From Escherichia virus TH29: a stretch of 53,648 bases of DNA. The notes under the pieces are model-generated. The model saw only the letters and a program-made list of their open reading frames with translations. It was not told the DNA's origin and searched no databases. The DNA is taken from the sequence record MT446403.1. One strand, written 5' to 3'. Made by a program: the position numbers and the translations under genes. Every line of letters starts with the position of its first letter. Within the stretch, counting starts at the first letter, position 1. Below, one piece after another: positions 7,850 through 53,648 of this stretch.

Positions 7850-8133
7850 TTTATTCTCCTAAGTTAAAAGAAAACTCCCGTCATAACGATTGTGGAGGTC
7901 TTGTGTTACCTTAATCCACCTTAAAGAATCAGGGAGTTACATATTAGTCTGTGTGTGCTGCTCTCGGTTACTTCCTAGTATTGCGAAGCTCTTGCATTCC
8001 CGCAAACCACACCTTTTGCACAGACCGTATGTGACACAACAAGTGCCGAAAACTACAATGATTAGCTTGGAGACATAATCTCTCTAAAATCTGTCACACA
8101 ATTTCAGCAGAATTTACAGAGATTTGGTCTTAT

Positions 8134-8149
8134 TCACATGCAACTAATG
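8134..8149 (-). promoter_or_regulatory. Conserved motif copy tcacatgCAACTAATGa (variant)
   Basis: Inside the 7.86-9.1 kb non-coding control region. Confidence 0.35.
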
Positions 8150-8342
8150 ATAAATGGACATGCTTAATTGCAACCAATTCATCTGCCAAATAGACGAATT
8201 TAGTCACAATCAAACATGCATCATTAATTACAGGTTTGCTCCTATCTTGGAATGTATTTGGCACATCAAGAAGTGGCGCAACAGGTACGGAAAACCGACC
8301 ATGTACAGCATAATAAAACTAATTAAATAAAGGGTTTTATCC

Positions 8343-8360
8343 CAATATTGTCACAATATT
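8343..8360. repeat. Tandem palindrome CAATATTG-tca-CAATATT, operator-like
   Basis: CAATATTG is self-complementary; the same 18-mer recurs at 8592-8609 with degenerate copies nearby and at 11383-11601; often followed by ACATGC. Confidence 0.5.
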
Positions 8361-8591
8361 TACATGCGATGATAAAGCCTTCGCTTGGCTGGAAGCCAGT
8401 ATTCATGCGGGTTGCAAGAATATTGGGTCAATACTGATATAGCTATTACATGCGAAATTGGCACAAATACTGTTACAAAATTAACATGCCGGATTGGTAG
8501 ACAATTGTATCTTCGAGGTGATTAGTCCTCTAACAATTCTGCCACATTCTAACATGCCAATTTGTAGCAATATTTACATGCCATACTATGA

Positions 8592-8609
8592 CAATATTGT
8601 CACAATATT
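8592..8609. repeat. Second exact copy of CAATATTG-tca-CAATATT
   Basis: Identical 18-mer to 8343-8360. Confidence 0.5.
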
Positions 8610-45122: not shown

Positions 45123-46886
45123 TTATTGATGCGGACCGTTCTTCTTAGTAAGTTGAACAATCTCTTTGGTTTCGAACAAGGAGTCGTCCCAAGAACGTTG
45201 AATGATTCGACCAGAGTCTGAGTCATAATACGTCTTGAAGCCTTCTGTCTTACCACTCTTACGGGCTTTGATAGAACGAATGATTGAACAGTTTGGGTCT
45301 ACTGCCTGACTATTACGCTCGAAGCCAAACATACCATGAGAATATTTAGCAGCAGCACGAGAGCCAGTAAAGTCTGACTTCTTGATTCGTCCACCATCTT
45401 CATGAGGTCGCTGACCTTTTGCCACAGGGTTAAGGTGCGACAAGATATTGACGTGGAACTGGTATTGGTCTGCCAGCTTAGTAATGTCTGCATACAGCTT
45501 GCCTAAGAAGTCGTTCTTCTCTGAGGCAGAAATCCCTTCCGATAAGTAGGTTAAGTTATCTAGAACAAACATATCAATGTCTGGACCAATCTGACGAAGA
45601 ATCGTCTTTAACCCATCCCAAGTTTCATAAGGGTCTTCTCCAGCTTGCTTTCGGTCCCAAATCTCCATGTTACGAAGCATCTTCGCAGCAGTTTGACGGA
45701 ACTTCGCTTCATCGTATCGAGGGTCTTCACGAGTAAACGCAGGTTCCCAATACGGCAAGTTGTCATTGAGGCCAGCCATGCGGCGCAATGTTTCCGCAGG
45801 AGTTTCCTCCATGTATGCAGTAAACACTCCCCAATCATGCTGAATGATATTGTGATGCACAATCTGTCGGGACAGTGTAGTCTTACCACCGCCTTCTGCA
45901 CCACCGATTGAGATAACTTCGGCACGACGCTGACCAAACATTAAGTCGGTTAGTTTAGTCCAGGGATAATCTACACCCTGTTCAACTTCGTCATCAAGCT
46001 CTTCCATAAGAAGTTCTTTATTGACAAGAGCTGTGGGCAGAGGACGAGCAGCACGGAATACAACAGCAGATTGAGTAGCTTTCAACAAGCCACGTTTCAA
46101 ACAGTCGTTGGCATCGTTGGCAGGAAGTGTGGCAATCATCGCACCAGGCAACAAACGACATGCTTCTTTGGCAGCTTTACGACCAGGTTCATCATCATCA
46201 AATACGATAACAACCTGCTCCCAACGTTGCTTAATTTCTTCTGCAACACGAGAAAGACATTTATGCACAGAGCTACTGCCATCACTTAAGCTAATAACAG
46301 CAAAGTCGAGGTCTTCATAAGCACTGCCACGATTCATTGTTTTAAGGATTTGACGAATAGCAATACAATCTTCTTCGCCTTCGGTAATGAATAATGTCTT
46401 ACCGCCAATGGCCTTTGCAGCCATAAAGTTATATGGGTCATTATCTTGAGTATCCCCAACTGACCACATAACCTTCTTATTTAGTAATTTGATTTTCCAA
46501 CGTACAAGTTTACCATTCTTGGTATACCCGTGAGCCAATGCGTTGGGCGTTTTCCCGTCGTATTCAGAATACAACAGTCTCACACCAGCAGCCTTCCAAA
46601 ACTCAGGCTCTATGCTTCTGTGGTCCAAATCAAATGGAGGGCAAGATGTTATTTCATCCACCTCTGCCTGAATCTCTTCTGGCGTCTTGATATGGACTTC
46701 GGGAAACTTCTCTGCATCTGTTCCATATGGATTTGGAACAAGAACACCACATGCAAAGCAAAATCCAGAATATGATGTGTTTCCAGATTCGTCCGTATTA
46801 ATCCAAACTTGCAAGGATTTTCCAGACGTAGATTTACAACCAGGTACATCGTGCTTTATCTTCGCGACGCATTGCTTAATATTCAT
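45123..46886 (-). CDS. Primase-helicase (T7 gp4-like)
   Basis: 587 aa; N-terminal zinc-binding region (PGCKS...FCFACG) and DnaB-type Walker A GGAEGGGKTT. Confidence 0.85.
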   Translation of the reverse strand: MNIKQCVAKIKHDVPGCKSTSGKSLQVWINTDESGNTSYSGFCFACGVLVPNPYGTDAEKFPEVHIKTPEEIQAEVDEITSCPPFDLDHRSIEPEFWKAAGVRLLYSEYDGKTPNALAHGYTKNGKLVRWKIKLLNKKVMWSVGDTQDNDPYNFMAAKAIGGKTLFITEGEEDCIAIRQILKTMNRGSAYEDLDFAVISLSDGSSSVHKCLSRVAEEIKQRWEQVVIVFDDDEPGRKAAKEACRLLPGAMIATLPANDANDCLKRGLLKATQSAVVFRAARPLPTALVNKELLMEELDDEVEQGVDYPWTKLTDLMFGQRRAEVISIGGAEGGGKTTLSRQIVHHNIIQHDWGVFTAYMEETPAETLRRMAGLNDNLPYWEPAFTREDPRYDEAKFRQTAAKMLRNMEIWDRKQAGEDPYETWDGLKTILRQIGPDIDMFVLDNLTYLSEGISASEKNDFLGKLYADITKLADQYQFHVNILSHLNPVAKGQRPHEDGGRIKKSDFTGSRAAAKYSHGMFGFERNSQAVDPNCSIIRSIKARKSGKTEGFKTYYDSDSGRIIQRSWDDSLFETKEIVQLTKKNGPHQ

Positions 46887-47329
46887 TAGATTTTACCTTC
46901 GTTGGCGAACTCCTTGTGCAGAGATTGCCTTATTCTTTTGGACATAACTTGAGCCTCTTCCAATGAAGAAGCCCTCATATACGTTGTCTTACCGTTGTGG
47001 CAGACCCTTACCTGGTAAGAGTTACCTACCTTACGGACGCCTTTTACACCGAGAGCGTTATTAGAGAACACTTTCCTGTTGCTGCAATTTTGCGAGCGAG
47101 TAGAGTCTCTGAGGTTGCTCGGTTCATTATTCAATGTGTTGCCATCAATGTGGTCAACCTCTTCTGGAACGTATCCATTATGAATAAAGAATACTAGGAC
47201 ATGTTTATAAATAGTATATTTATGATTATTATGCCGCATGGTTGCAGACAAATAACCTTTACCATTGAGGGTCCAAGTAAGTGTTCGGGTGCTGGCGACC
47301 TTATATATATAGCTTTTGGCTAGCTTCAT
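46886..47329 (-). CDS. HNH homing endonuclease with AP2-like DNA-binding domain
   Basis: HNH core VDHIDGNTLNNEPSNLRDSTRSQN and AP2-like GVKGVRKVGNSYQVRVCHNGKTTYMRASSLEEA; ORF 46886-47380, likely start MKLAKSY. Confidence 0.7.
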   Translation of the reverse strand: MKLAKSYIYKVASTRTLTWTLNGKGYLSATMRHNNHKYTIYKHVLVFFIHNGYVPEEVDHIDGNTLNNEPSNLRDSTRSQNCSNRKVFSNNALGVKGVRKVGNSYQVRVCHNGKTTYMRASSLEEAQVMSKRIRQSLHKEFANEGKI

Positions 47330-47349
47330 CGCCAGACCTCCTTCAACTA

Positions 47350-48000
47350 TTATTCCTGATTGGTCAGAGCCTTCCAGCAAATTGGGAATAGTTCTGACAT
47401 AATTTTATTCACTTCTTCCGCAAACAAGCGAACTTCATACTGCGCATGTTCGGAGGAACGTTGATTATACATGGATGCCCAGCCATAAAGAGAGCCAGTC
47501 CAAACCCATTCAGTCATCATGGATTGTGGCAACACCATGCGAGCTTGCTCTGGAGCAATCCCCAAACCAATTAACGTTTCATATTCTGCAATGCAAGCCT
47601 TGTTATGGCTTTCCATGCGATAATGAATATCGTCAGCAAAATCTTGTGGCAACGATTGTGCAGTCTGAGTCATCAACTTCTCAGGACGACCGAGTACAAC
47701 ATCTGGTACAAAGCATTCAATCGAGATTGCTTCACCATCTTTGTAACGACGGCTAACTTCATTCCAGCTAAAGCCAGTTTGGTGTTTGCCAAGCTGACGT
47801 GCAATGAAGAGTGGAGCTTTGCAACGCAGGGTTACTTGTGCATGACGGAATGGCGTAATGTGCTTATGCTTTGCAAGAAACTCAATCAGCTTCTCGTCAC
47901 GTAAAGATATTTCATGCGACTCTGCACCATAAGAAACTCGTGCAGCATTAACAGTTGTAAGGTCGCTGCCCATGTGGTCAACGAGTGTGGCAGTAATCAT
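47350..48000 (-). CDS. ThyX-like flavin-dependent thymidylate synthase homologue with divergent active-site motif
   Basis: 216 aa; AARVSYG, KAPLFIARQ and the overall pattern match ThyX, but the RHR(x7)S signature reads KHQTGFSWNEVS. Confidence 0.65.
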   Translation of the reverse strand: MITATLVDHMGSDLTTVNAARVSYGAESHEISLRDEKLIEFLAKHKHITPFRHAQVTLRCKAPLFIARQLGKHQTGFSWNEVSRRYKDGEAISIECFVPDVVLGRPEKLMTQTAQSLPQDFADDIHYRMESHNKACIAEYETLIGLGIAPEQARMVLPQSMMTEWVWTGSLYGWASMYNQRSSEHAQYEVRLFAEEVNKIMSELFPICWKALTNQE

Positions 48001-48056
48001 TTGCTCTCCGGTTCATATGGTGGGAGATTAATTAGCTCCGCACCATAACAATGGTA

Positions 48057-48278
48057 TTATTTTAATGACGCCTGTAGCGACGCATTTAGTACAGAACGCT
48101 TTTCATATTCGCGCTGGTTGTACGTGTTTGTCAGTGCTTCCGCAGCTTCTATTGACAAGATTGCAAAACCACCAAAGGCATTGCGAACTTCTTCAATATC
48201 CATGTGCAGGACTTCACTTGTAATTTGGCTGGCTATTACAGCCTTGTAAATCTCTTCGGCAATTTCAGCAGTTTTCAT
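48057..48278 (-). CDS. Hypothetical small acidic protein
   Basis: 73-aa ORF. Confidence 0.45.
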   Translation of the reverse strand: MKTAEIAEEIYKAVIASQITSEVLHMDIEEVRNAFGGFAILSIEAAEALTNTYNQREYEKRSVLNASLQASLK

Positions 48279-49131
48279 GTTTCTCTCCAGTTAAATTTAA
48301 GTAAGTGCCCTGACGTGGACTATTACGAACATGACAATATATTGGCTTAAATGATGTTTCCACTGCGGCCAAGACACTTATTAAATTTGATTCGAACCGC
48401 CCAAGTGAATCAGCCTTGTTTATGGGGACCATCGGGGAAAAGTATAAACCCGCTTAATACCTATGTCAGATATTAAGAACCCTGGCTTGCATATTTCATG
48501 TGAATAGGAACATAGTCTGGATTTTGAATCCAGCTAACTTCGAGAAGAGGAGTAGCTCAAACGAAAGCCTGAACTTTCTTTCGACACATCACAATCAGCG
48601 CAACTGAGCCGTATCGCTACGGTATGCCAGACGCTAACTTGAGCCTTTTGAACAGAGGCATAACTGTTTGGAAAGTGGTGGATTCGGTGAACTCCGCGTT
48701 CACAATTACACAGTCGGCCTCGGATGCTACATCCCTATCCCATCGTGCAGGTTTCATTAACTCTACGAATCCATTGAATTTGGTGACCAGTACGTTGGTC
48801 AGACGCTGTGGCCTTTACGCGGCCAACGTGCCATTAATGCTGGCAAGACAGAGCTAACGTTCTCAAGCACTTTTGTCTAGGTCTGTTCCCGGCCACTGTT
48901 CTAGGAAGTGACTACCTGAATTTCACGCATTCAATACGGGGCTTCCGTCCTCGGAGGCAGCAATTTCAATTGTTATGCCCAGAGCAATTTGCAGGAATTA
49001 CACCTGCCATACTACAAGTAGCTAGAGTCTCGTTATTTAAAGTCGCACACTCCCTCGACTATAGTATACGTGTATTTAAAGTCCCGTACCGGACTGCCAA
49101 ATGAAATGCGATGGCGAGCATTTTGTTCAAC

Positions 49132-49341
49132 TCACTGTCGGGTAAGTTTCGAACACTTTTGTGACCACGTTTCATTGTGGACTAAAATCTGGGTTTTGGT
49201 TTCGCGTGATAAAACTTTCACTTCTGCAACATCCAAATAGATTGGTTGTGCAATCAAGCAATAATCACTTACGAACCCACTTTGAGAGCAACTCACTATC
49301 GACATTGCTATCAGAACTGCTAGACACTTCTTTCTGAACAT
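49132..49341 (-). CDS. Putative small lipoprotein overlapping the upstream membrane-protein gene
   Basis: Internal start MFRKKCLAVLIAMSIVSC has a basic n-region, hydrophobic core and lipobox-like IVSC; weak RBS. Confidence 0.3.
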   Translation of the reverse strand: MFRKKCLAVLIAMSIVSCSQSGFVSDYCLIAQPIYLDVAEVKVLSRETKTQILVHNETWSQKCSKLTRQ

Positions 49342-49501
49342 GCGATTTAATCTCGATAGATTCCTTAATAGAATCGAATTGCTTCTCTTTGGCTTCCTGA
49401 CGCTCCTCGGCTTTGCCTGAGCTTCTGCCTTTGAGGAACACTGCAAAGAGAATTCCCAATGCAGTCAAGACGCCAAGAAATATTGCCTTAAGCTGTTGCA
49501 T
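49265..49501 (-). CDS. Small membrane protein with N-terminal TM helix and charged C-terminal region
   Basis: 78 aa; TM segment AIFLGVLTALGILFAVFL; ATG at 49499-49501 with GGTGA RBS. Confidence 0.5.
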   Translation of the reverse strand: MQQLKAIFLGVLTALGILFAVFLKGRSSGKAEERQEAKEKQFDSIKESIEIKSHVQKEVSSSSDSNVDSELLSKWVRK

Positions 49502-49509
49502 GAATCACC

Positions 49510-49650
49510 TTAGATGGCACACGCACCACTTGAGCAGTCGTTATCACCAGCACCAGGGACGATTGCTTCTTCGTCCTGCTTCTTCTTGAGTTCTTCAATT
49601 GCTTCTTCGGCAGCACCGAAGTCTAAGTTATCAAGTGCATCAAAATCCAT
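49510..49650 (-). CDS. Small acidic protein (46 aa, absent from the ORF track)
   Basis: Hand translation MDFDALDNLDFGAAEEAIEELKKKQDEEAIVPGAGDNDCSSGACAI; GGAG 7 nt upstream of the ATG. Confidence 0.35.
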   Translation of the reverse strand: MDFDALDNLDFGAAEEAIEELKKKQDEEAIVPGAGDNDCSSGACAI

Positions 49651-49674
49651 GAGGACTCCATGTTTGTTGTTGAG

Positions 49675-49769
49675 GGTGGACGAGGTTGGGTTCGAACCAA
49701 CGACACATCTGTTCGACAGATTGCTCTACCTGACTAAGCTCTGGAGCAGACCTTCTGAGCTACTCGTCC
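49675..49769 (-). ncRNA. tRNA-like element (possible pseudo-tRNA or non-canonical tRNA, anticodon region CGA)
   Basis: Minus strand has a perfect 7-bp acceptor-like stem (GGACGAG/CUCGUCC), T-arm GUUGG-UUCGAAC-CCAAC, D-arm-like GCUU-AGUCAGGUA-GAGC and a 4-5 bp anticodon-like stem with loop GUCGAAC, but about 21 extra nt 5' of the D-arm. Confidence 0.3.
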
Positions 49770-50569
49770 AAAATTGGGTGGGTTTTGGTAACGCAGGTTT
49801 TCCCGAACTGCGAGGCTTGTAGAATCTGTGAGTCGCCTACTGTGTTTTGACATAACATGGGATTGATGGTCCCGACTCACTTCATCTCAGGTACGAGGCA
49901 CTACTTTGCGAGTGCAAGCAGGTGTTGAACCCAAGTACCAACAGGCAACCTAATTTATTCCACCGTTGTGGAAACCATTGGTTAGAGCAGTTTATTTCCA
50001 TGCTCCGGGCAATTCACTTTAAATGAATTAAGTTTGTACTCTGTCACATCCCTACGCGCACTGAGGGACTTAAGTCTGCATTACATCGCAGAATACAAAT
50101 TAATTAATGCTCCGATTTATTAATCACATCTCGAAGCCACAATGCGCCAAATTTGGTTACGTGGGGTTGGAAGACCACGGAGAGAACTTAAATTTAATTA
50201 AGCTGCAACTCGCATTTCAGAATCATTTGCATTTATTTTAAATGAATAAAACAGTCGCAATAACTCCAGGCAGTTTAGGCCCGTCGTAAGACTCAGAAAA
50301 CTACTTCAATTTGCACACAACAAATTTCCCAACATTGCCTTCCGTCGAAGGCTCATGCAATGGTGTTTGAATTATGTACAAATTGAAGCAACTTCAATGA
50401 ACACTCTTGTCTGGGCCACGAGCTTGGGCATCGACCTACCTCCCAACTCTAATCACAAGAATGCTCATTGAAGCCCACTCACTCTGGAATGGGTTCAAGG
50501 CAGCACCGGACAACTTCCAGTGCATGCCAGATCGATTTAGCTTAGCTTCTCAAGTTTGCTCTTGGCAAC

Positions 50570-50985: not shown

Positions 50986-51002
50986 TCACATCCAATTAAT
51001 GT
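50986..51002 (-). promoter_or_regulatory. Conserved motif copy tcacatCCAAtTAATGT
   Basis: One mismatch to the core; upstream of gene 50570-50908. Confidence 0.45.
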
Positions 51003-52285: not shown

Positions 52286-52923
52286 AGGAACTCTCCAATT
52301 TTCGATTCGATGTTTGTGACGCTTCTCTCATCTTTTGGCCTTGTGGAAACAGCCACAGGGTAGCGCAGGAAGCCCGATTTCCGGGCCGTAGCCTACCGTT
52401 TGTGTCAATTCTGGATAACTGCATTGGCGAAGGGTTACTCCCGTTAGGGTGCGATACGCTAATCACATGAGTGTCGTCGCCTTACGGCTCAGGCGTGTCA
52501 CAGAGGCTTTGCAACCCTTCCCAATACATTCACCCAAATACCAGCTTTGGCGTAGCTGGTGGCTCTGTTTTGTGCGGATTATGCCACTCTAAGCCCTGTT
52601 TGTCCGACTTCCTCGGAGCACCAGCGGCTTGTGGCACAAACCTATTTTAGAATGACTAACATAAGCATGAGGCATAACCCTCTAATTATTCAGCCCTAAC
52701 AGCTTGCTTATTCAGTACCAATTCAACCCAATACATACACAACTATATACAATAGCGAACTATCTGCGAAAACTATCCGGCCCTATGGCCTAAGTTAAAG
52801 TTAATAGTGTGTGATGGAAACATTCCATCGAAAATAACTTTGCAGAATGAGTCGAACATTCTCACACGTCTAGCGGCCGCAACGGTCTACCGAGTTACAA
52901 AGTTATTATCTGATGTTGTTTCT

Positions 52924-53648
52924 TCAATTCCAACTAATGTCGAATACTCTTCTTGCAAACAGGACAAGTGATGAATCTGTATGCAAAGTATCCTCGGTCA
53001 TTCTTTCCTGTGTACATCTTTAAGTCAGAGAACACGTAAGATATTGCAGAGAAACATACCCACACTGGCGTGTGAATGTTACGTTATCCTTTTCCAAAAC
53101 TTTTATCATTTCAATTCCAACTAATGTTTCAGAATTATTCCAATATTCCAAACAAAAAGAATAATAAGAATAAATTAAAAATAAATGAAGAAAGTTCTTG
53201 ACACCCATTTGGCGATAGGTGTATAATGCCTTTCTTCCCTAAGAGGTCAGAATCAAATCCCACTAATGTTTCAGACGAAGTGCCGAAGGCGAATCCTCTC
53301 CCAAACCCGCTTGGAACAAGATGCCTCCGGCCTGGAACTATACTGCTTTCCAATCTGAATCAAACAGTTCCTTTGGTCTTGAATAAATTATCGAATTAAT
53401 TCCCAAGAAAGTGTGATTTCCATACTTCTTAACTTCCTGGTAAGCAAATCCATCTACCCAATTACCGCAGTGGGTTTTAATCTTTGTAGCAAACAGAATT
53501 CGGTAGTAGTGACCACGTGGCTGGTGGAAGAGAATATCTTCTGGCTTGATTGAGTTGATATTTAAATCAGACATTTAAGAACAATACCCCTTCGGAGAAG
53601 ATGTAGTCACTGCCGTAATCTTTGGTGATTGCATCCCAATCAATATAT
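52924..53648. repeat. Right copy of direct terminal repeat (identical to 1-725)
   Basis: Exact repeat of the left end, including the three motif copies, the sigma70 promoter (53198-53227) and the 78-aa ORF (53338-53574). Confidence 0.9.

Follow-up and report, generated by a model that had tools for sequence, protein, structure and literature searches.

The locus in Escherichia virus TH29

The stretch of DNA analysed here, called the window, is the whole 53,648 nucleotides (nt) of sequence record MT446403.1 from Escherichia virus TH29, and the element in question is an interval at 48279-49131 which, with high confidence, is the site of a real, conserved and structured RNA element. All the genes in this part of the window are on the minus strand, as are all the RNA features described below. 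The interval (853 nt, hereafter the gap) is flanked by the stop codon of an o-spanin-like open reading frame (ORF) at 49132 and by the ATG of a gene of 73 amino acids (aa) at 48278. Across the gap, the gene strand is free of ORFs of 60 aa or more, as an original prediction made from the window alone had stated for nearly the same interval, 48290-49130. Given the absence of such ORFs, the lack of codon periodicity and the conservation of the interval, it is taken as the locus of a large non-coding RNA composed of a 5' domain, a linker and a 3' core.

The original prediction placed the gap in the early region of the genome; the nearest phage-promoter motifs are upstream of it, and the DNA-metabolism module (ThyX, HNH, primase/helicase) follows shortly downstream. 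The sequence had also been described as visibly GC-richer than its surroundings and as rich in short inverted repeats, and neither trait exceeds chance. The GC content of the gap is 0.451 against 0.439 for the window, which corresponds to the 67th percentile among windows of the same size, and it reaches 0.483 only over 48600-49100; the five inverted pairs of at least 10 nt are not above chance for a single sequence. The minimum free energy (MFE) of the whole gap has a z-score of -2.2 (20 shuffles), and that of a 289-nt core segment a z-score of -1.0 on the minus strand versus -0.9 on the plus strand (200 shuffles). The decisive signal is the comparison with relatives and not the sequence of the window alone: the original prediction was right about the place and partly wrong about the reasons.

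Conservation of the gap in Cleopatravirinae phages

The 1.5 kb around the gap are 92-97% identical to the corresponding region of Escherichia phages MLP1, TH24, phiEcoM-GJ1 (GJ1), Mangalitsa and many others, which are classed in GenBank as Carltongylesvirus, Cleopatravirinae, Chaseviridae, and are myoviruses with a T7-like RNA polymerase. Identity of the gap itself within Carltongylesvirus is 85-97%, and colinear blocks are found in five other lineages; by sensitive blastn these appear as conserved blocks with variable sequence between them. Synteny was followed in the Carltongylesvirus genomes phiEcoM-GJ1, SA91KD, Mangalitsa, ST32 and DE15, in PYps23T (a close relative of this genus with no genus in its record), and in phages 4HA13 (Sabourvirus), PM1 (Suwonvirus), Faunus (Faunusvirus), and Aioli and Fifi44 (Loessnervirus). 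The IMG/VR database added the uncultured lineages L018-L022 and L098 and also L100, a cultured phage, and a phage collection added Aeromonas phage phiA050.

In all the Cleopatravirinae genera examined, a gap of 0.65-1.2 kb without credible genes occupies the same place, flanked on one side by the spanin-like pair and on the other by the small gene that precedes ThyX, and it has been kept across genera whose proteins have diverged to approximately 75-80% identity. The RNA is carried by phages of E. coli, Erwinia and Pectobacterium, and by the Aeromonas phage phiA050. One 21-mer, UGAAAUAUGCAAGGCAGGGUU, is identical across four genera. A covariance model of 91 positions (R1), which covers the P8-P10 segment of the 3' core, matches every Cleopatravirinae-type locus exactly once, with 48-88 bits and on the gene strand. 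It has no match in 70 unrelated phage loci with ThyX, 464 kb in all, nor in the Nefertitivirinae phage pAh6.2TG (Pahsextavirus), a genome with no gap and no motifs, in which dense coding sequence lies upstream of the primase gene. Four metagenome loci were matched: one is the L020 contig, another (L111) scores 24 bits with R1, and two (L112 and L113) are without the core motifs.

The conserved 21-mer has no match in 185,579 bacterial and archaeal species genomes (one genome per species), and blastn with the whole gap found nothing in 5,426 complete E. coli genomes. Since both are absent from these cellular genomes, the element belongs to the phage lineage, and a host origin or host mimicry was rejected on the same grounds. 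A separate observation concerns GenBank record PP952070.1, "Staphylococcus phage Pel53" (host Staphylococcus hyicus), which is approximately 93% identical to this Carltongylesvirus region and whose primase/helicase protein shows 95% identity; a wrong host assignment or contamination is the likely explanation.

A non-coding interval under selection

The gap holds small ORFs of 55, 46 and 38 aa on the minus strand and of 77 and 44 aa on the plus strand. None of them matches Pfam at the curated cut-off (the 77-aa ORF gives two weak matches, E 0.02-0.03), and no PHROG family was found for them below E 0.085. Variable sites were counted in nine Carltongylesvirus genomes, both in the gap and in the adjacent ThyX gene. 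By position modulo 3, those of the gap are distributed 64/55/60 (p=0.71), that is, with no codon periodicity, whereas those of ThyX are distributed 54/40/142 (p=1e-17), a strong periodicity; only 17 of the 68 indel runs in the gap are multiples of three. Variable sites make up 21% of the gap versus 36% of ThyX. The gap is non-coding DNA, under a nucleotide-level constraint stronger than that on the neighbouring enzyme gene, and a coding explanation was rejected given the lack of Pfam and PHROG matches, the lack of periodicity and the indels that do not come in threes.

These data bear as well on the possibility that the gap is the remnant of a decayed gene, or a neutral spacer with chance hairpins. 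Its ordinary GC content and the non-significant folding z-score of the single sequence would fit such an origin, but the gap is more conserved than ThyX, shows extensive compensatory substitutions (described below), has no codon periodicity and is retained across genera with proteins at approximately 75-80% identity; this explanation is effectively refuted. A lack of conservation in related phages would have spoken against the original prediction; the opposite is found, with a gap that is better conserved than the neighbouring ThyX gene. In GenBank, some relatives leave approximately 1 kb blank at this place and others carry short or opposite-strand "hypothetical proteins", so that current annotations of the locus are wrong: blanks or spurious hypothetical proteins stand in place of an RNA.

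Architecture of the 3' core

The universal part of the RNA is a 3' core of approximately 370 nt (48302-48667), in which block alignments show stems that vary in sequence while their pairing is kept. Its statistics were obtained with a model of 75 pairs in 16 helices, counted on a plain, unfitted MAFFT alignment of 12 lineage-1 sequences. In this alignment 93.5% of the cells are paired, compared with 32-46% when the partners are slid by 1-3 columns, and 31 of the 75 pairs have changed on both sides, compared with 3-9 in the slid controls; none of 500 shuffles attains the observed values. G-U cells outnumber A-C cells by 59 to 9, an excess that makes the fold specific to the transcribed strand and, therefore, a property of RNA. 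RNAalifold, applied to eight lineage-2 sequences, arrives independently at the same architecture (43 pairs, 19 of them compensatory). The candidate structured non-coding RNA of the original prediction is thus strongly supported by covariation, with compensatory changes found across genera.

The 5' edge of the core is formed by an H-type pseudoknot (48643-48667) with stems S1 (ACAG/CUGU) and S2 (GCCU/AGGC) and loops L1 (UUAU) and L3 (UCAAA). Of 22 genomes, 19 have all eight of its pairs and the others seven, with seven distinct sequences of S1 and six of S2; the same geometry turns up in 1.1% of shuffled segments. It is followed by the long-range helix P3, in which UCUGGCAUA (48623-48631) pairs with UAUGCAAG (48486-48493), approximately 140 nt downstream, and which encloses P4 to P7. 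P3 includes the most conserved sequence of the RNA, UGAAAUAUGCAAGNCAGGGUU, and is invariant in most genomes; L021 and phiA050 carry a compensatory C to U and G to A change.

Inside P3 are located the GNRA hairpin P4 (CCGUA-GCGA-UACGG, 48609-48622; its stem is GUGUA/UACAC in 4HA13), the conserved joiner UUGCGCUGAUUG (48592-48603) and helix P5 (48589-48593 with 48499-48503). The latter is UGUGA/UCACA in the window, UGUGU/ACACA in GJ1 and UAAAUG/CAUUUA in L019, and it is replaced by unrelated helices of 6-8 bp in lineage 2. P5 in turn contains three hairpins: P5a (48563-48578), P6 (48539-48561) and P7 (48517-48533). The stem of P6 covaries (GAG/CUC, GGG/CCC, UGUGU/ACACA, CUGG/CCAG) around a pyrimidine loop, (U)ACUCCUC(A), that every lineage retains and that reads UUACCUCCUGU in L022. 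In sequence, this loop resembles the anti-Shine-Dalgarno (anti-SD) end of 16S rRNA.

Beyond P3 comes helix P8 (5' strand within 48477-48483, 3' strand within 48418-48428), together with the variable hairpin P9 (48453-48477), which has a UUCG loop in L022, and P10 (48433-48452), with stems CGGG/CCCG or CAGG/CCUG. P11 (48389-48411) follows, with the loop ACUUGGGCGGUUC. Decayed tRNA genes had been suspected from the sequence GGTTCGAAT at 48390, and this suspicion was rejected: the sequence corresponds to the loop and 3' strand of P11 and not to a T-arm. The second long-range helix, P12 (UAAGUGUC/GGCACUUA, 48373-48380 with 48302-48309), spans approximately 70 nt; it reads UGAGCAUC/GGUGCUCA in Faunus and phiA050, and unrelated helices of 9-14 bp take its place in lineage 2. 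The last hairpin of the series is P13 (48313-48332), and the core also carries a T-loop-like loop. Given that P3 and P12 are long-range helices (approximately 140 and 70 nt, respectively) with compensatory changes, at least approximately 370 nt behave as one folding unit.

The 5' domain and the linker

The 5' domain (48806-49096) was delimited by block alignments with covarying stems, and RNAalifold finds in it 40 pairs, 10 of them compensatory. From its 5' end, it comprises module A' (49072-49096), the module A hairpin with its UUUAAAUAACGAG tail (49025-49060), hairpins A2 (49012-49021) and A3 (48992-49006), module B (48954-48989), module C (48893-48920), which exposes a second pyrimidine, anti-SD-like loop (CACUUCCUAGAAC), module C2 (48851-48870), the hairpin GCCAGCAUUAAUGGC (48830-48844) and hairpin H (48806-48824). 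An exact direct repeat, GACUUUAAAUA, is present at 49034-49044 and 49073-49083, and since each copy follows a short hairpin (in modules A and A'), module A appears to be duplicated in this phage. The idea that module A is a T7-type promoter was rejected, as it is unlike the phage's own promoter consensus. The order and presence of the modules vary by genus: B precedes A in Faunus, L018 and L021, and Loessnervirus is without B. The order from A to C to H is retained in most genomes.

The linker of the window contains a tRNA-like element (TLE) of 97 nt (48676-48772), with a 7-bp acceptor stem (GGAUUCG/CGAAUCC), an arm that is both long and variable, a hairpin that stacks on the acceptor stem in the position of the T-arm, the conserved sequence UAGAGUUAAUGAAACC and a 3' ACCA. 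In eight sequences from four lineages, RNAalifold finds 19 pairs, nine of them compensatory (one acceptor pair, for example, changes from U-A to G-C in L098, L020 and L100), and the ACCA or GCCA end is conserved in all eight. The homologues of L098, L020 and L100 are located elsewhere in the gap. The TLE was not called by ARAGORN and has no match to the Rfam tRNA model (RF00005) at E<=10. It shares with tRNAs, viral tRNA-like structures and the tRNA-like domain of tmRNA an acceptor, a hairpin in the T position, an encoded CCA and a D-region-like segment; unlike a tRNA, it has no anticodon loop, its central arm ending in a triloop or a variable hairpin, and the copy of the window has no T-loop consensus. 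The features by which tRNA-like structures are recognised, namely a 7-bp acceptor coaxial with a hairpin in the T position and a discriminator followed by CCA, are all present, and the element at 48676-48772 is tRNA-like but not a tRNA. The original prediction had offered a cluster of degenerate tRNA-like elements as one candidate, and this is partly right: the gap contains one conserved element of this kind, ending in NCCA.

The junction between the 5' domain and the core varies among the relatives. In PYps23T, L015 and L019 there is no TLE, and hairpin H (GGCCGCGUAAAGGCC-ACAG) is followed, after approximately 10 nt, by the pseudoknot. The insertion at the junction consists of the TLE plus extra sequence in GJ1 and ST32, of a mini tRNA-like element in phiA050, of a long hairpin in 4HA13 and of approximately 215 nt in L021, and in PM1 and L018 the equivalent interval, between the 5' modules and the core, holds a genuine tRNA-Cys.

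Such a layout could also be that of an array of separate small RNAs and decoys resembling tRNAs that happen to share one intergenic island; they might, for example, be substrates or decoys for host tRNA-targeting defence nucleases, or punctuation marks for processing. Such an array would account for the changes in order and copy number of A, B, C and the TLE between genera, for the true tRNA-Cys genes in the same gap and for the further tRNA-like and tmRNA-like genes in the neighbouring one. However, the long-range helices P3 and P12 hold the 3' core of at least approximately 370 nt together as a single folding unit, the order from A to C to H is kept in most genomes, and the 5' domain adjoins the core directly in three lineages, which implies that both domains can be one molecule. 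The array is quite unlikely, and there is moderate confidence that the 5' domain, the linker and the core form one molecule.

Relation to known RNA families

No tRNA or tmRNA gene was found by ARAGORN in the window, and the Rfam search at the gathering score found nothing in the target, either in the window or in loci L001-L006; at E<=10 over positions 48000-50300, it found nothing credible inside the target. These scans, which the original prediction had proposed as checks, indicate by their negative outcome that the RNA is not a member of a known family. The tmRNA models RF00023, RF01849 and RF04321 have no match inside 48279-49131 and weak ones in the neighbouring gap. No group I or group II intron was matched with Rfam; the flanking ORFs are complete and the gap is intergenic. 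Searches for repeats, promoters and terminators in the gap gave chance-level matches only. The RNA is undescribed in the literature consulted on Chaseviridae, Carltongylesvirus, phiEcoM-GJ1 and phage structured RNAs, and is likewise absent from Rfam 15. The phage structured-RNA candidates of Fremin et al. (2023) do not exceed 151 nt.

The closest parallels are found among the large RNAs of phages. GOLLD is reportedly due to Weinberg and colleagues (2009) and was studied by cryo-electron microscopy by Kretsch and colleagues (2025). It is phage-encoded (RF01998) and consists of a variable 5' domain, a linker with a tRNA and a conserved 3' domain, with a length of approximately 800 nt or more, many helices and pseudoknots, assembly into a homo-oligomeric nanocage, and no known function (PMC12286853). 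ROOL (RF03087), another large ornate RNA, occurs in phages and prophages, often close to tRNA islands, and is believed to need no protein partners for its action; the published characterisation of both RNAs, whose functions are unknown, is based on Lactobacillales strains and environmental sequences (PMC12286853).

The RNA described here resembles GOLLD in size (853 nt in the window, 0.65-1.2 kb in relatives), in its universal 3' core preceded by variable, reordered 5' modules, and in the association of the linker with tRNAs (tRNA-Cys in the gap of PM1 and L018, the TLE in the window, and tRNA-like and tmRNA-like genes upstream). With ROOL it shares the condition of a large ornate phage RNA near tRNA islands. 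Nevertheless, the GOLLD covariance model has no match in the window, nor at E<=5 in seven relatives from other genera; the ROOL model has none in the window or the relatives, and its sequence and fold are unrelated. None of the conserved motifs of this RNA occurs in the published GOLLD or ROOL alignments, and the contexts also differ, since those of GOLLD are mostly prophages, Lactobacillales, Mycobacterium and marine sequences, whereas the present RNA belongs to lytic phages of Enterobacterales and Aeromonas with a T7-like RNA polymerase. Homology with GOLLD or ROOL was rejected on the basis of the covariance models and the motifs, and the RNA is best described, by analogy, as a new family of a known kind, the large ornate phage RNAs, with a GOLLD-like layout.

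Transcription and the downstream gene

The phage-promoter motif (consensus around ATTAGTTGGA) occurs, with at most one mismatch, 16 times on the minus strand of the window and once on the plus strand; three of the minus-strand motifs lie in the terminal overlap described below and are thus counted twice. The scan of the window found none in the gap or just upstream of it, and the nearest upstream motifs are at approximately 51000 and 51332. Given that there is no promoter in or near the gap and no terminator that delimits it, the RNA is inferred to share a transcript with the RNA genes upstream and the replication genes downstream, and to be processed from it.

The primary origin of phage T7 is promoter-dependent and is also located upstream of replication genes. 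The gap could, in the same manner, be a replication-origin element whose transcript or DNA acts at the origin, for example as a structured pre-primer RNA like RNA II of ColE1, and its place directly upstream of the primase/helicase and DNA polymerase module, together with transcription by a T7-like RNA polymerase (deduced from taxonomy and annotation), would be in keeping with this. There is, however, no phage-promoter motif in or beside the gap, nor an AT-rich tract, an array of direct repeats or an inflection of the GC skew; the excess of G-U over A-C and the presence of GNRA, T-loop-type and pseudoknot motifs are signs of a folded RNA and not of a DNA site, and the Nefertitivirinae relative has homologous primase/helicase and DNA polymerase genes without the element. 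An origin function is very unlikely.

Directly 3' of the RNA, and not part of it, lies the 73-aa gene (48057-48278, minus strand), a member of phrog_32967 (E=3e-48), a family of unknown function. In the relatives, the RNA is usually followed by a gp32-like small gene homologous to it; in three of approximately 12 lineages a different gene comes next, L019 having ThyX at this place, L022 an HNH-like ORF and L098 a 199-aa ORF. The distance from the conserved motif to the start codon ranges from 177 to 318 nt across lineages. The conserved fold ends at least 14 nt before the Shine-Dalgarno sequence (SD), which lies outside the conserved helices; in the window, P12 is the helix that ends approximately 14 nt before it. 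The inconstancy of the next gene and the distance between the end of the fold and the SD argue against a leader dedicated to sequestering the ribosome-binding site (RBS).

A cis-acting role deserves, even so, to be weighed in its general form: the RNA would be a leader, or a platform for processing or stability, of the DNA-metabolism operon (73-aa gene, ThyX, primase/helicase), and would control the stability, processing or translation of the mRNA, for example by pairing of the anti-SD-like loops with the downstream SD. Like the bacterial leaders (riboswitches, T-boxes, ribosomal-protein leaders), the RNA lies 5' of an operon with no intervening terminator; it is always directly upstream of the replication module, with neither terminator nor promoter between, P12 ends close to the SD in the window, and the loops of P6 and module C are complementary to GGAG. 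Unlike those leaders, it is several times larger (650-1200 nt and more than 20 helices are far above the known ones), the gene downstream varies (gp32-like, ThyX, HNH-like ORF or 199-aa ORF) at a variable distance, its RBS is outside the conserved fold, and no known aptamer was detected in it. The SD takes part in no conserved helix, and the loop does not covary with the SD variants (e.g., in Mangalitsa). Moreover, such a leader explains neither the tRNA or TLE embedded in the linker nor the modular build of the 5' domain. Three partners were considered for the anti-SD loop, namely the downstream SD, the TLE loop and the module A loop; pairing with them was rejected, as there is no covariation and the candidate partners are not conserved. 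A cis-acting leader or platform, which corresponds to the regulatory region among the candidates of the original prediction, is rather unlikely as the explanation, though the invariant position upstream of the replication module continues to speak for it.

A gene for an HNH homing endonuclease changes its place around the RNA locus from genome to genome, as is typical of a mobile gene. In the window (46886-47380, minus strand) and in GJ1 it separates ThyX from the primase gene; SA91KD has it between ThyX and the small gene, in DE15 its neighbours are the spanin-like genes, and in L022 it immediately follows the RNA.

The neighbouring RNA-gene island

Upstream of the gap, a second stretch devoid of gene-strand ORFs of at least 60 aa extends over 49502-50569 (1068 nt), and with the gap it forms an RNA-gene island of approximately 2.3 kb, interrupted by the spanin-like pair (49132-49501, minus strand). 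One member of this pair is an i-spanin-like gene, its 78-aa product bearing a transmembrane segment at the N-terminus; the other is the overlapping o-spanin-like frame, whose product contains IVSC, which reads as lipobox-like. The pair is in the early or middle region, far from the usual place of lysis genes, and its counterparts in relatives are annotated as Rz-like spanin, endolysin or hypothetical protein.

The second stretch holds a tmRNA-like element, a tRNA-like gene, an acidic ORF of 46 aa (49510-49650) and a conserved block (49781-49819) that is found inside the main gap in Loessnervirus. The tmRNA-like element (50143-50391, minus strand) has weak Rfam matches to alpha_tmRNA (E=0.0015) and to tmRNA_permuted, below the gathering score, and no ARAGORN call. 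It contains a tag frame at 50198-50230, GCA AAU GAU UCU GAA AUG CGA GUU GCA GCU UAA, which reads ANDSEMRVAA*; the frame is conserved with synonymous changes, and its variants are ANDSEIRVAA, ANDSEMRMVA, ANDNEMRAAA (L020) and ANDNYALAAA (L019). The tag of E. coli tmRNA is ANDENYALAA. The phages may encode their own, possibly permuted, tmRNA.

The tRNA-like gene (49685-49780, minus strand) is aberrant: it has a good acceptor stem and T-arm, an insertion of 18-23 nt in the D-loop and a shortened anticodon loop. It figures in the annotation of phiEcoM-GJ1 as 'tRNA-Arg, may contain an intron'; ARAGORN calls its counterparts Leu(cag) in GJ1 and Ser(gct) in SA91KD and makes no call in the window, and the Rfam tRNA model gives 42-46 bits in relatives and 24 bits in the window.

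Two other stretches of the window are without gene-strand ORFs of 60 aa or more: 7850-8599 (minus strand, 750 nt), which could hide another RNA or small genes, and 52467-53019 (minus strand, 553 nt), which carries phage-promoter motifs. The ends of the window, 1-725 and 52924-53648, are identical (725 bp), which corresponds either to a terminal repeat or to the assembly overlap of a circularly permuted genome, with a unit genome of 52,923 bp; this repeat holds three phage-promoter motifs.

Proposed role of the RNA

The gap is non-coding and under purifying selection, and its transcribed strand has a conserved multi-domain fold. The function assigned to it is held with weak confidence. The RNA would be made within a long transcript of the phage RNA polymerase that starts at the promoter motifs near 51000 and 51332 and continues into the replication genes, and host RNases would cut it out of this transcript, with the TLE or the tRNA possibly acting as an RNase P or 3'-processing site. 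The product would be, with moderate confidence, a stable, abundant and trans-acting 'ornate' RNA of the GOLLD and ROOL kind, which possibly self-assembles. The presence of an RNA-gene island and of two anti-SD-like loops leads to the guess of a translation-related role, in which the RNA would engage the host translation apparatus, be it the ribosome, a ribosomal protein or SD-bearing mRNAs, and would not simply control the gene that follows. The variable next gene, the variable spacing, the SD outside the fold, and the size and complexity of the structure make a stable trans-acting RNA likelier than a dedicated leader.

Several observations weigh against this proposal. The thermodynamics of the single sequence are uninformative (z-scores of -1.0 to -2.2), and neither a terminator-like site nor a promoter delimits the RNA; the ends, abundance and processing of the transcript are predictions. 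The RNA always precedes the replication genes, as would be expected of a cis-acting leader too, and the reordering of the 5' modules and the TLE between genera could mean several independent RNAs. The analogy with GOLLD and ROOL is architectural, with no likeness in sequence or covariance model, and the link to translation is drawn from loop sequences and neighbouring genes. On balance, the chances are about even that this is a previously uncatalogued RNA, specific to Cleopatravirinae (Chaseviridae) phages, which acts in trans as a stable molecule.

The large RNAs with elaborate folds include the rRNAs, RNase P, group I and II introns, tmRNA, OLE, GOLLD, ROOL and a few others; to our knowledge, very few RNAs longer than 500 nt and with an elaborate conserved fold have been described in bacteria or phages. 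A more far-reaching and clearly tentative proposal is that the present RNA may be the third independent family of giant 'ornate' phage RNAs, after GOLLD and ROOL, found in lytic, easily cultured phages of E. coli K-12. With the tmRNA-like gene and the tRNA-like elements beside it, this large RNA could be the central member of an RNA island of the phage that reprograms or shields the translation machinery of the host, maybe as a self-assembled RNA particle which displays tRNA-like ends and anti-SD-like loops. E. coli serves as plating host for the phiEcoM-GJ1-like phages (K-12 MG1655 in the isolation of flopper), which have 52-kb genomes and a T7-like RNA polymerase, and for which RNA-seq, deletion, compensatory mutagenesis, cryo-electron microscopy and pull-downs are routine. 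An architecture analogous to that of GOLLD in such phages would make the question of function directly testable, and the findings suggest that a whole island of RNA genes related to translation is present in them.

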